Assembly (NCBI GenBank): GCA_963169075.1
Contig: CAUJGC010000551.1
Span: 1 to 12,742 of the forward strand
Direction of reading: 5' to 3'
Source: Myxococcota bacterium
GTDB lineage: Bacteria; Myxococcota_A; Bradymonadia; Bradymonadales; GCA-2716585
DNA: 12,742 nt
This document shows positions 6,757 through 12,582 of the stretch, piece by piece. The translations under genes were made by a program, and so were the position numbers. Each line of letters begins with the position of its first letter. The first letter of the stretch is position 1. A model generated the notes under the pieces. It had not been told where the DNA came from and made no database searches. It saw only the letters and a program-made list of their open reading frames with translations.

Positions 6757-8370
6757 TCACTCCAGCGACTTGATGCTCTCCCAGAGAATATTGAAGCGTG
6801 ACAGGTACTTGCGGAGGCGGTCGGCGTCGTTGCTGGAGGTCTTCTGGGTGCGGGAGACGGCGAAGAGGGCGCGTCCGGCGTCGGAGAGGGTGTTGGAGGC
6901 GCGGCAGACGGTGATGACGTCCGCGAGCTGGACGCGGTCGAAGCGGTCGAGGTGGTCGGCGGCGACCTGACCGATGAGGCGGACGAGGAGGGCGTCGGCC
7001 TGGGCGGTGGGGGTGTCGGCGTCGCGTCTCCAGGCGCGCTGGAGGCGCTCGAACTCCTCATCGACGACCTCGGGGGTGATGCGTCCGCCCTGGGCGAGGG
7101 TGGCCATGCGGGTGATGGCGGCGTTGAGGTCGCGGAAGTTGCCTCGCCAGGCGGCGTCTGGGGCGGTGGCGCGCTTGATGAAGCGGTGTCGGGCCTCTTT
7201 GTTGAAGGTGACGAGGGAGTCGTTCTTGCGGGCGTAGTGGTCGAGCTCGTAGCGGAGGTTGGGCTCGATGTCTTCGAGGCGGTCGCGGAGGCCGGGCAGC
7301 TCGAAGGTCCAGAGGTCGATCCGGGCGAGGAGGTCTTCGCGGAAGCGACCTTTGACGACCTCGGCGCGGAGGTCGCGGTTGGTGCCTGCGATGAGCTGGA
7401 ACTCGGAGTGGACCTCCTTGTCGGAGCCGACGGGGAGGAAGACGCCGGACTCGATGGCGCGCAGGAGCATGGCCTGCTCGTCGAGGCCGAGCTCTCCGAT
7501 CTCGTCGAGGAAGAGGAGGCCCTTGTCGGCGGCGCGGAGGAGGCCGGGTCGGTCGGAGATGGCGCCGGTGAAGGCGCCCTTGCGGTGTCCGAAGAGGGCG
7601 GACATGGCGGCGTCGCCGCGGAGGGTGGCGCAGTTGACCTCGACGTAGTCGCCGGAGACCTGGCGTCGGGACTTCTTGAGCTCGAAGATGCGCCTGGCGA
7701 GGTGGGTCTTGCCGGCGCCGGTGGGTCCGGTGAGGAGGATGGGGGCGCGGGAGGCGATGGCGACGCGCTCGATCTGCTCGATGAGGCGGTTGAAGCGCTC
7801 GTTGCGTGTCTCGATGCCGGCCTTGAGGAAGGAGCGGGCCTCCTGGGTGTCCTGGGCGAAGCGGGAGGCGAGGCGGTCGTAGCGGGAGAGGTCGAGATCG
7901 ATGATGCGGTAGTCGCCGGGTCCGACGTGCTGGGAGCGCTCGGGCGGGGAGGCCTGGAGGAGGCGGGCGGGGAAGAAGCGCGCCTCGGTGAGGAGGAACA
8001 TGCAGATCTGGGCGACGTGGGTGCCGGTGGTGATGTGGACGAGGTAGTCCTCGTGGTCGGTGTCGAAGGGGTAGGCGCGTGCGAAGGTGTGGAGGGCCTC
8101 GTAGACGCCCTCGAAGTCCCAGGGGTCGCCGTAGTGGACGGCGTGGAGTCGGACCTCGGTCTCGGGGGAGACGAGGCGGAGGTCGTCCTGGAGGTGCTCG
8201 GCCAGCTCCTGGTGCTTGGGGAGGTGGAGGAGCTCGAAGCGGTCGATGCGGAGGTCTTCGTGCTGCCCGAGGGCGACGGTGGGTCGCCACTTCTCCCAGC
8301 GCAGGGGCCCCTGCCCGTTGTCCAGGCGTGTGCCGGGCAGACCGATCATGACGAGCTTGCGACGAGGCAT
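6757..8370 (-). CDS. rtcR: RtcR, sigma-54-dependent transcriptional activator with N-terminal CARF domain, 537 aa
   Basis: - Near full-length alignment to E. coli RtcR.
- N-terminus MPRRKLVMIGLPGTRLDNGQGPLRWEKWRPTVALGQHEDL (E. coli: KTVAFGFVGTVLD...QRWSKWRPTLCLCQQESL).
- Walker A LTGPTGAGKTHLARRIFEL, GAFTGA motif, FREDLLARIDLWTFELPGLRDRLEDIEPNL.
- C-terminal HTH, ending ...DADRLRKYLSRFNILWESI.
- The start is the internal Met of track ORF 6757..8826; the upstream 152 codons are P/S/T/A-rich antisense junk. Confidence 0.93.
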   Translation of the reverse strand: MPRRKLVMIGLPGTRLDNGQGPLRWEKWRPTVALGQHEDLRIDRFELLHLPKHQELAEHLQDDLRLVSPETEVRLHAVHYGDPWDFEGVYEALHTFARAYPFDTDHEDYLVHITTGTHVAQICMFLLTEARFFPARLLQASPPERSQHVGPGDYRIIDLDLSRYDRLASRFAQDTQEARSFLKAGIETRNERFNRLIEQIERVAIASRAPILLTGPTGAGKTHLARRIFELKKSRRQVSGDYVEVNCATLRGDAAMSALFGHRKGAFTGAISDRPGLLRAADKGLLFLDEIGELGLDEQAMLLRAIESGVFLPVGSDKEVHSEFQLIAGTNRDLRAEVVKGRFREDLLARIDLWTFELPGLRDRLEDIEPNLRYELDHYARKNDSLVTFNKEARHRFIKRATAPDAAWRGNFRDLNAAITRMATLAQGGRITPEVVDEEFERLQRAWRRDADTPTAQADALLVRLIGQVAADHLDRFDRVQLADVITVCRASNTLSDAGRALFAVSRTQKTSSNDADRLRKYLSRFNILWESIKSLE

Positions 8371-8425
8371 GTAGGGCCTTGTAGGTGGGTGTGGGGCTGG
8401 TGGGTCGTGGCGCGCGCGGTGCGGT

Positions 8426-8761
8426 CTAGCCGACGTAGTAGCTGTCCCAGGAGGTGGGGAAGAGGCCCTCGAAGAGGGCGGGGTCGCGGGCGGTGAGGGT
8501 GAAGTAGGTGGAGGAGCGGTTGGGGGTCTTGAAGCGGACGGAGGTGATGTGGGCCTGGAGGGCGTGCTCGCCGCCTTCGGTGAGCAGGTCCCCGAGGCGT
8601 CCCTCGGGGGAGTCGCAGGCGGTGTAGGCGTCTGCGAGGAACATGGCGCCCCAGCCGGGGTTGCCGTTGTAGACATTCTTGTCGTTGAGGCTCTCGAACC
8701 AGCCGTGGAGGGTGTTTCCGTCGATCGCTTCAATGCGCAGCTCACCGAGTTGGGTGGCCAT
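8426..8761 (-). CDS. Hypothetical protein, 111 aa, no family recognised
   Basis: - Clean ATG with GGAG 8-11 nt upstream.
- Strongly C-ending codon usage, identical in style to rtcR on the same strand.
- Globular-looking composition (GNTLHGWFESLNDKNVYNGNPGWGAMFLADAYTACD...).
- Lies 55 bp upstream of rtcR on the same strand. Confidence 0.6.
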   Translation of the reverse strand: MATQLGELRIEAIDGNTLHGWFESLNDKNVYNGNPGWGAMFLADAYTACDSPEGRLGDLLTEGGEHALQAHITSVRFKTPNRSSTYFTLTARDPALFEGLFPTSWDSYYVG

Positions 8762-11410: not shown

Positions 11411-11462
11411 GGCGCGCGGGGCGCAGGTTGTTGAAGGTGAGATGACACGAGGTGGAGGTGCT

Positions 11463-12582
11463 ATGGATTTCTCGGGGCTGCTGGACCTGGCGTCGGAGAA
11501 GCTGGGGGGGATGGTGGAGTATGCGACGGACGACTTCTTCGCGGAGAAGGAGAACCTGATCAAGGCGAGCGAGCCGGTGTGGAAGGAGGGGGTCTACACG
11601 GATCGCGGGAAGTGGATGGACGGTTGGGAGTCGCGCCGGAAGCGGGTGGCGGGGCACGACTGGGCGATCATCCGGCTGGGGCTGCCGGGGGTGATCCGGG
11701 GGGTGGTGGTGGACACGACGTTCTTCACGGGGAACTACCCGGCGTCGTGCTCCATTGAGGCGGCGAGCGTGGAGGGGTGTCCTTCGACGGCGGAGCTGCT
11801 CTCGGAGGGGGTGGAGTGGTTTGAGGTGGTGCCGAAGACGGGGCTGAAGGGGGACACGAAGAACGTGATCGAGGCGCGCTGCGAGCGTCGGGTGACGCAC
11901 CTGCGGCTGCACATCTACCCGGACGGCGGCGTGGCGCGGCTGCGGGTCTACGGCGAGGGGGTGCCGGAGTGGCCGCGGCTGCTGCGGAGCGGCGGGGAGG
12001 TGGATCTGGCGGCGGCGGAGCACGGCGGGCGCGCGGTGGGCGCGAACGACGCGCACTACGGTGCGCCGGTGAACCTGATCATGCCGGGGCGCGGGGTGAA
12101 CATGGGGGACGGGTGGGAGACGCGTCGTCGTCGGGGGCCGGGGCACGACTGGGCGATCCTGGCGCTGGCGGCGCCGGGGACGATCTCGACGGTGGAGGTG
12201 GACACGAACCACTTCAAGGGGAACTACCCGGATCGCTGCTCGATCGACGTGTGCTACGCGCCGGGCGCGGACTGGATGACGCTGAACGGGGAGCTGGTGG
12301 AGTGGCGTCCGCTGCTGCCGGAGGTGAAGCTCCAGGCCCACGCGCGTCACTTCTTCCATCGGGAGGTGGCGTCGCACGGCGTGGTGACGCATGCGCGGCT
12401 GCGGATCGTGCCGGACGGCGGGGTGAGCCGGCTGCGGCTGCTGGGGCGTGTGGCGGAGGAGGCTCGGGAGCGGCTGGTGCTGCGCTGGCTGAACACGCTG
12501 AGCGCGCCGGCGTTCCGGGAGGTGGTGCGGGCGTGCTGCGGCTCGTCGGCGTGGTGCGCGGGGCTGGAGGCGCGGCGCCCCC
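11463..12582 (+). CDS. alc: Allantoicase (two allantoicase repeats) continuing in frame into the N-terminus of an OHCU decarboxylase domain; 3' end lost in poly-G tract
   Basis: - I translated this myself; it is not in the ORF track because no stop occurs before the window end.
- MDFSGLLDLASEKLGG...GKWMDGWESRRKRVAGHDWAIIRLGLPGVIRGVVVDTTFFTGNYP...RLHIYPDGGVARLRVYG...MGDGWETRRRRGPGHDWAILALAAPG...VDTNHFKGNYP...RLRIVPDGGVSRLRLLG matches Pseudomonas Alc closely.
- After the second repeat comes LNTLSAPAFREVVRACCGSSAWCAGLEARRP, the signature OHCU decarboxylase start (CCGSxRWAxxMxxxRPF).
- GGAGG sits 6 nt upstream of the ATG.
- The sequence beyond ~12582 is an unreliable G-tract. Confidence 0.8.

Follow-up and report, generated by a model that had tools for sequence, protein, structure and literature searches.

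An RtcR/RtcA locus carrying ureide-pathway genes in a Myxococcota bacterium, apparently a variant specific to a small clade

The RNA 3'-terminal phosphate cyclase RtcA generates the ligand of the transcriptional activator RtcR, its product is not needed by the ligase RtcB, and what the bacterial Rtc system, RtcA especially, does for the cell is still debated. In Escherichia coli, a divergently encoded RtcR, with CARF, AAA+ and helix-turn-helix (HTH) domains, lies beside the RtcA-containing operon rtcBA (Genschik 1998; PMC3854526, PMC9650030). The Salmonella operon rsr-yrlBA-rtcBA(-dinJ-yafQ) is a precedent both for extra co-regulated cargo and for RtcA as maker of the RtcR ligand, that is for a positive feedback (PMC7790460, PMC3854526); there, RtcR-dependent activation of the operon needs RtcA in some backgrounds, and expressing RtcA is enough to bring it about (PMC7790460). 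Here we describe an rtcR/rtcA locus of a Myxococcota bacterium, located on contig CAUJGC010000551.1, the whole of which (12,742 nucleotides (nt), GC content ≈70%) was analysed by open reading frame (ORF) listing and family scans (Pfam, NCBIfam) and is hereafter called the window. In this locus rtcA opens a co-directional string of genes dominated by the ureide pathway, and the arrangement appears to be a clade-specific variant of the RtcR/RtcA locus with metabolic cargo, conserved in a small and poorly sampled clade.

The window shares with E. coli a divergent RtcR beside a gene string containing rtcA, RtcR and RtcA being full-length, at equivalog level and with catalytic and signature motifs intact. 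It differs in having no linked rtcB, in rtcA being the first gene, followed by four ureide activities and an rRNA methyltransferase, in an additional ORF (orf111) placed between rtcR and the divergent promoter region, and in the lack of a canonical TGGCAC-N5-TTGC promoter. Whereas Salmonella adds cargo related to RNA (Ro, Y RNAs and a ribotoxin), that of the window belongs to small-molecule purine-ring catabolism. A conventional purine/urate cluster, such as that of a Gemmatimonadaceae metagenome-assembled genome (MAG; L057, xdh-allB-alc-uraD-uraH and, directly after uraH, the urate oxidase gene puuD), has in common with the window clade the cassette itself, its internal order allB-alc-uraD-uraH and equivalog-level enzymes; in the window clade, however, rtcA replaces the upstream xanthine dehydrogenase gene and an RlmK-like methyltransferase gene the downstream urate oxidase gene, alc and uraD are fused, and no purine-type regulator (TetR, AllR, PucR) is adjacent. 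Finally, the loci L051-L053 of a marine Myxococcales MAG (rtcR<->rtcA-bpMoxR, without rtcB) and the locus L005, where rtcA alone faces rtcR and rtcB is convergent behind rtcR, likewise have rtcR divergent to rtcA as first gene and rtcB outside the operon, but their downstream cargo is different or absent and includes no ureide genes.

The identities that the earlier note had assigned to rtcR, rtcA and the allantoinase and allantoicase genes were borne out, all products exceeding the curated family cut-offs. RtcR (537 amino acids (aa); nt 6757-8370, minus strand) is a CARF-domain sigma-54-dependent activator that scores 808 bits against NF038308 (cut-off 650), with a full-length CARF domain (PF06956, 1-183/183) and a Sigma54_activat domain (PF00158); its translation retains the GAFTGA and Walker A/B motifs and a C-terminal HTH, and the gene starts at nt 8370, not at nt 8826 as first annotated. 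The HTH segment LSDAGRALFAVSR..NDADRLRKYL is the same in 13 distant relatives, and a changed DNA specificity of RtcR is not indicated, because the HTH is invariant across all lineages compared. RtcA (347 aa; nt 8962-10005, plus strand) scores 416 bits against NF003246 (cut-off 352), matches the structure of E. coli RtcA (1qmh) at 1.7e-83 and has a His aligned with the catalytic, adenylylated His309 of the E. coli enzyme (...PSCH-LLTN...), by which it is predicted to be catalytically competent.

Downstream of rtcA and on the same strand, allB (nt 10046-11410) codes for a 454-aa allantoinase (536 bits against TIGR03178, cut-off 358) and is followed by a gene for a fused allantoicase and 2-oxo-4-hydroxy-4-carboxy-5-ureidoimidazoline (OHCU) decarboxylase, alc::uraD, only the 5' 1.1 kb of which are present (nt 11463-12574; allantoicase part 445 bits against TIGR02961, cut-off 278). 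The distances of 40 and 52 bp reported previously for the two junctions (nt 10006-10045 and 11411-11462) are exact, but the last gene does not end at nt 12582, as had been assumed. Indeed, the same organism is also represented by a separate, independent Logan assembly (L046); this assembly, matching the window from nt 9003, has zero mismatches up to nt 12574, and from nt 12575 on 63 of the 79 mismatches are changes of another base to G; nt 12582-12742 are 86% G. The end of the window (nt 12575-12742) is hence a poly-G sequencing or assembly artefact overwriting the true coding sequence, probably a read artefact of two-colour chemistry carried into the MAG.

In L046 the intact alc::uraD product is 504 aa long and comprises PF03561 and PF09349, its UraD part scoring 167 bits against TIGR03180 (cut-off 139). 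Two further genes, missed in the first annotation, follow: uraH, coding for a 5-hydroxyisourate (HIU) hydrolase (TIGR02962, 144 bits, cut-off 87) and overlapping alc::uraD by 4 nt, and, 1 nt past uraH, a gene for a 319-aa methyltransferase (L046 nt 4321-5280), alignable at 385 bits with the RlmK portion of RlmKL. Allantoinase, allantoicase, OHCU decarboxylase and HIU hydrolase are thus all assigned at equivalog level, and the string rtcA-allB-alc::uraD-uraH-rlmK-like is functionally mixed rather than purely ureide. The window, L046 and the 17.4 kb analysed around the related locus L054, described below, contain no gene for xanthine dehydrogenase, urate oxidase or a purine-responsive regulator. 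The stand-alone RlmK-like methyltransferase (of the 23S rRNA m7G2069 type) lies directly after uraH in both lineages (L054 nt 11251-12261, at a distance of 6 nt), so that the string opens with an RNA-end-modifying enzyme and closes with an RNA-modifying methyltransferase.

Searching GTDB genomes and JGI metagenomes for RtcR and RtcA returned nothing above 66% identity; the close relatives of the locus were obtained solely by protein-database look-ups. A genome with 84% nucleotide identity (L049) keeps rtcR-orf111<->rtcA and, after 71 nt, the N-terminus of the allantoinase. Apart from these, the allantoinase nearest to that of the window in the protein database is P0124 (64% identity), encoded on a 28-kb contig (L054, also L055), where the layout is rtcR, 179 nt, divergent rtcA, 64 nt, allB, a 4-nt overlap, alc::uraD, a 4-nt overlap, uraH, 6 nt, methyltransferase gene; the corresponding gaps of the string in the window and L046 are 40, 52, -4 and 1 nt. 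Protein identities to L054/L055 amount to 72% for RtcR, 65% for RtcA, 64% for AllB, 55% for Alc::UraD, 70% for UraH and 58% for the methyltransferase. All six genes of the block are kept in L054 in the same order and orientation, whereas none of the seven other genes of the window (six flanking genes and orf111) occurs in its 17.4 kb; on one side of the L054 block lie acetyl-CoA synthetase and peptidase S58 genes, on the other those for an uncharacterised protein and for malate synthase. Six genes kept intact amid reshuffled surroundings are a classical sign that a gene cluster is under selection.

For each of the six proteins these two lineages are nearest to one another, and outside of them the arrangement was not seen. 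The allantoinase genes that come next in similarity have ordinary surroundings: one belongs to a TetR<->allB-alc-uraD cluster, on the contig carrying P0125, that of L056 has a FabH-like gene upstream, and that of L057 lies in the conventional cluster described above. Genes allB, alc, uraH and the methyltransferase gene occur in none of the 45 more distant rtcR/rtcA loci collected for comparison, nor in the few further ones that bring the total to about 50. The closest named matches are themselves mixed, RtcA pointing to Myxococcales/Archangium and Planctomycetota, RtcR to an acidobacterium and AllB to Gemmatimonadota. A standard ureide cassette appears, from these comparisons, to have been placed behind rtcA in the window clade. 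The adjacency is probably not due to chance, contrary to the suggestion of the earlier note that it might be fortuitous, and the comparison with relatives that the same note had set as a test showed that those close enough to compare keep this layout and not the conventional rtcR/rtcBA one. Conservation of the block is a real association and a previously undescribed one, a literature search having returned no paper mentioning both RtcR and allantoinase. In L054, the acetyl-CoA synthetase (nt 3007-4935) and malate synthase (nt 13261-15294) genes flanking the block may form a metabolic island with it or be there by coincidence; the substrates of malate synthase are acetyl-CoA and glyoxylate, with which the ureide pathway ends.

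The ligase gene rtcB was found neither in the 12.7-kb window nor in L054 and L055 by tblastn with the RtcB of locus L018 (PF01139, 294 bits), so that its absence, already proposed from the sequence, holds for the window. In 26 of the 30 distant loci that bear rtcR, the contig also carries rtcB, which everywhere except in L005 lies to that side of rtcR where rtcA is found, and rtcR divergently adjoins rtc genes in nearly all of the other rtcR-carrying loci. Linkage of rtcA and rtcB is, across bacteria, the exception (Das and Shuman, PMC3854526); because of this, and because other RtcR operons without rtcB exist, the missing ligase alone is a modest novelty.

Our preferred reading, to which we assign a probability of about 0.45, is that the locus is a co-regulated unit in which RtcR senses RNA with cyclic-phosphate ends, RtcA amplifies the signal and the ureide enzymes dispose of, or salvage, the purine ring. 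The string would be a single transcription unit initiated upstream of rtcA, and RtcR would be activated by RNA fragments with 2',3'-cyclic phosphate ends, of which RtcA, by analogy with Salmonella, would make more, with a positive feedback as a result. The co-expressed enzymes would then convert 5-hydroxyisourate to OHCU, allantoin, allantoate and finally ureidoglycolate and urea, and RNA breakage or turnover would thereby be coupled to purine-ring disposal or nitrogen salvage. A regulatory coupling of the ureide genes to RtcR is plausible. In E. coli, Rtc is induced by oxidative-stress mutants (PMC9650030); because of this induction, and because HIU hydrolase and OHCU decarboxylase are encoded here without a linked urate oxidase, a speculative extension is that the enzymes may clear urate or purines oxidised non-enzymatically under oxidative stress.

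Co-transcription was evaluated at the junctions. In a pattern scan of the window, L046 and L054, nothing resembling an intrinsic terminator turned up between one gene of the string and the next; L054 has two plus-strand matches, both within coding sequence. The 40-nt rtcA-allB junction (nt 10006-10045) comprises a T-rich stretch at nt 10015-10029, one position off the 10014-10028 first reported, and a Shine-Dalgarno sequence, GGGAGG (nt 10032-10037). Between the window and L049 this gap is 42% identical, with a length difference of 31 nt, and only the Shine-Dalgarno GGAGGTGT is common to both; on the contrary, identity is 64% upstream of rtcA, in a region that includes a 25-nt invariant block containing a tandem 12-mer. 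Since the rtcA-allB gap is essentially unalignable, conserved non-coding information lies upstream of rtcA and not of allB. Two candidate elements were rejected at this junction: a promoter of allB in the T-rich stretch, as proposed by the earlier note, since this has no sigma-70-like match and is not conserved in L049; and an intrinsic terminator after rtcA, since the pattern scan found none, the gap folds no better than shuffled sequences in the window and L049, and the L054 hairpin has no U-tract. Read-through from rtcA into allB, as one transcription unit, appears fairly probable on these grounds.

A sigma-54 promoter was looked for in the region between rtcR and rtcA. In other RtcR loci such a promoter is readily recognized: 20 of the 22 non-redundant loci have sites matching at least 9 of the 11 sigma-54 consensus positions, and a perfect TGGCAC is present in 17, approximately 85-147 nt from the rtcR start. 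In two relatives, L018 (nt 9549-10001) and L038 (nt 9520-10001), rtcA is the first gene and a strong sigma-54 promoter lies 312-339 nt upstream of its start; an Rfam scan of these long promoter-to-rtcA leaders gave nothing. The best candidate in the window, TGGCCATAGCCGTGCT (nt 8755-8770, plus strand), has a GG-N10-GC core, matches 8 of the 11 consensus positions, keeps the GG and TGC cores, is conserved in L049 as TGGCCATGGCCGCGCT and resembles likely variant promoters of L027 (TGGTAATCGCCTTGCA) and L043 (TGGTGATTGCCGTGCC). A GG-N10-GC candidate with the same GTGCT -12 element as in the window and L049 occurs in L054 at nt 6805-6820. A second candidate in the window, TGGCGCGCGCGGTGCG (nt 8408-8423), was discarded, not being conserved even in the 93%-identical L050. 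Also discarded were the GATA/ACGATA repeats that stand beside rtcR in 8-10 of the 22 relatives and that we infer to be an RtcR enhancer motif: they are absent from the window, from L054 and, save for one isolated TATC, from L049.

Several observations, on the junction, on the sampling and on the promoter, weigh against the co-regulated unit. With 40, 64 and 71 nt, the rtcA-allB junction is the widest gap of the string in all three genomes; in L054 it contains a stable 9-bp GC hairpin, devoid of a U-tract, and in the window TTTATTTT comes after a weak hairpin. Elsewhere on this contig, genes of unrelated function stand just as close together (1 nt between uraH and the rlmK-like gene, 10 nt between the MaoC gene and orf110), and short gaps are for this reason weak evidence of a shared function. 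The comparison is deep in one case only, and the two lineages may form one clade; the absence of rtcB applies only to the 12.7 kb of the window and the 17.4 kb of L054. As to the promoter, no canonical sigma-54 site (TGGCAC-N5-TTGCW) is present between rtcR and rtcA in the window or L054. A weight matrix built from the promoters of 20 relatives (training scores 7.3-27 bits, at least 15 bits in 19 of 20) reaches no more than 5.6 bits anywhere in the window, -1.3 in nt 8371-8961 and 1.5 in the L054 intergenic region, values that correspond to background and include the candidate at nt 8755-8770, whose conservation could be explained by its overlap with the start codon and ribosome-binding site of orf111 alone. 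The homologous 12-mer of L054, TGGCCATTGCCG, lies 97 nt from the rtcR start, has no -12 GC and supplies instead the -35 element of a sigma-70-like promoter, TTGCCG-17-TATGAT, placed 48 nt before rtcA. The claim that the genes are co-transcribed under RtcR was thus strengthened in its first part, by the lack of terminator-like sites at either junction, and weakened in its second, by a sigma-54 matrix at background and the L054 sigma-70-like promoter.

The junction data have an alternative explanation, somewhat unlikely in our view, in which rtcA and the ureide genes are neighbours by descent, brought together by shared ancestry or transfer of a single segment. Here rtcA would be a monocistronic RtcR target or constitutive, and allB-alc::uraD-uraH-rlmK would be an independent operon that responds to purines or nitrogen from a non-canonical promoter located either within the 40-71-nt gap or at the 3' end of rtcA. 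The wide gap, the L054 hairpin, the hairpin of the window with the sequence that follows it and the tight packing of unrelated genes would all fit; moreover, the ureide cassette is autonomous in conventional purine operons, and the promoters of this lineage have not been characterised, so that a missing match to TTGACA/TATAAT means little. On the other hand, a gap which, between genomes 84% identical, conserves nothing save a Shine-Dalgarno would be unusual for a promoter with an operator, the junction has neither terminator-like nor promoter-like matches, and it survived while both flanks of the block were fully reshuffled between the lineages.

A second alternative, which we regard as rather improbable, accepts a co-transcribed string and attributes it to a housekeeping-type promoter, RtcR acting at a sigma-54 promoter elsewhere (for example, that of an unlinked rtcB) or merely modulating. 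It draws on the sigma-70-like promoter that precedes rtcA in L054 (a single match in 6.8 kb, against an expectation of 0.2), on the lack of a canonical sigma-54 site throughout the window and L054, and on the Myxococcales locus L051, which is likewise without one. However, no sigma-70-like site is found at the homologous position of the window, and GG-N10-GC candidates with the GTGCT -12 element are present in the window and L049 as well as in L054. Furthermore, an RtcR with an intact GAFTGA motif needs a sigma-54 promoter, and activators of this kind usually act on a neighbouring one; the divergent adjacency of rtcR and rtc genes, near-universal in other rtcR loci, is retained in this clade. 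The intact RtcR, kept beside rtcA, argues for an action there, the promoter evidence in itself being inconclusive to negative.

It is also conceivable, if doubtful, that in this clade RtcR and RtcA have become a self-contained device that detects broken RNA and amplifies the signal, with a ligase-free regulon, the output of which would be purine-ring removal (from 5-hydroxyisourate to ureidoglycolate and urea) and rRNA methylation instead of repair. RNA damage or turnover would in that case connect directly to nucleobase catabolism. Insertion of the ureide genes into an ancestral rtcA-methyltransferase operon was rejected, since none of the other RtcR loci examined carries the methyltransferase gene.

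The opposite orientation of rtcR and rtcA had been recognized beforehand, but the two genes are not directly divergent: orf111 (nt 8426-8761, minus strand), previously overlooked, sits between them on the rtcR strand, 55 nt upstream of rtcR. Its differences from L049 by codon position are 11/10/30, with zero indels, a pattern indicating a real coding sequence under constraint. The 111-aa product matches no family in Pfam, NCBIfam or PADLOC, is lineage-restricted, with homologues in only two clusters among 5.8 billion proteins (95% and 83% identity), and yields an AlphaFold model too poor for a fold search (predicted local distance difference test score, pLDDT, 51); nor does it resemble the ORF of equal length that precedes rtcR in L018. 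The gene is absent from L054, where rtcR and rtcA are directly divergent; at its position there is only a 35-codon arginine-rich ORF, with the same ATGGCCA start, overlapping the rtcR start codon by ATGA.

In the intergenic region between rtcR/orf111 and rtcA, the best-conserved non-coding block is a perfect tandem repeat of the 12-mer CCGTGCTCCGTA (two copies, nt 8764-8787, read directly in the sequence), invariant in the window, L049 and L050, which could be the leader or ribosome-binding site of orf111, or an operator. A GC-rich palindrome, GGCGCGC-GGGG-GCGCGCC (nt 8801-8818), in the intergenic region or putative rtcA leader, is paired in the minimum free energy fold, and in L049 a different GC palindrome takes its place. 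Repeat and palindrome together (nt 8764-8818) could serve orf111-rtcR or rtcA as an operator or as a structured leader. Over the full length of the window, neither Rfam (E<=1) nor a tRNA scan detected a Y RNA, riboswitch, tRNA-like element or other match.

The remaining part of the window, to the left of rtcR, contains a major-vault-protein-like gene (nt 65-2902, minus strand), the genes of a voltage-gated-type ion channel (nt 2944-3885, plus), an endonuclease-dU/DUF99 protein (nt 3907-4497, minus), a 430-aa protein with no assigned function (nt 4579-5871, plus) and a MaoC dehydratase (nt 5913-6350, plus), and a small membrane-like ORF (nt 6361-6693, plus). The 945-aa vault-like product combines the repeat and shoulder domains of major vault protein (PF11978, 2e-22; PF17795; PF17796) with a long, coiled-coil-like tail at its C-terminus. 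From nt ~3900 to 12574, as well as in L049 and L046, third codon positions use G and C with an extreme strand asymmetry, whatever the orientation of the gene, with C at 0.75-0.80 of third positions in the minus-strand endonuclease-dU gene, rtcR and orf111 and G at 0.67-0.74 in the plus-strand rtcA, allB and alc. The plus-strand third-position GC skew is +0.3 to +0.67 in this part, almost none in the left 3.9 kb and none in L054; a third-position skew of this size far exceeds the replication skew known to us in bacteria.

If the adjacency proved to be regulatory noise, the locus would be an unusual but ordinary neighbourhood in a poorly sampled lineage. If the co-regulated unit is real, it would be a first genomic link of RNA-fragment sensing to nucleobase or nitrogen salvage, and a conserved natural variant that retains sensor and ligand-maker, lacks the ligase and gains purine-ring catabolism would fit a view of RtcR and RtcA as a general signalling module for RNA breakdown, able to drive varied outputs and not strictly repair.

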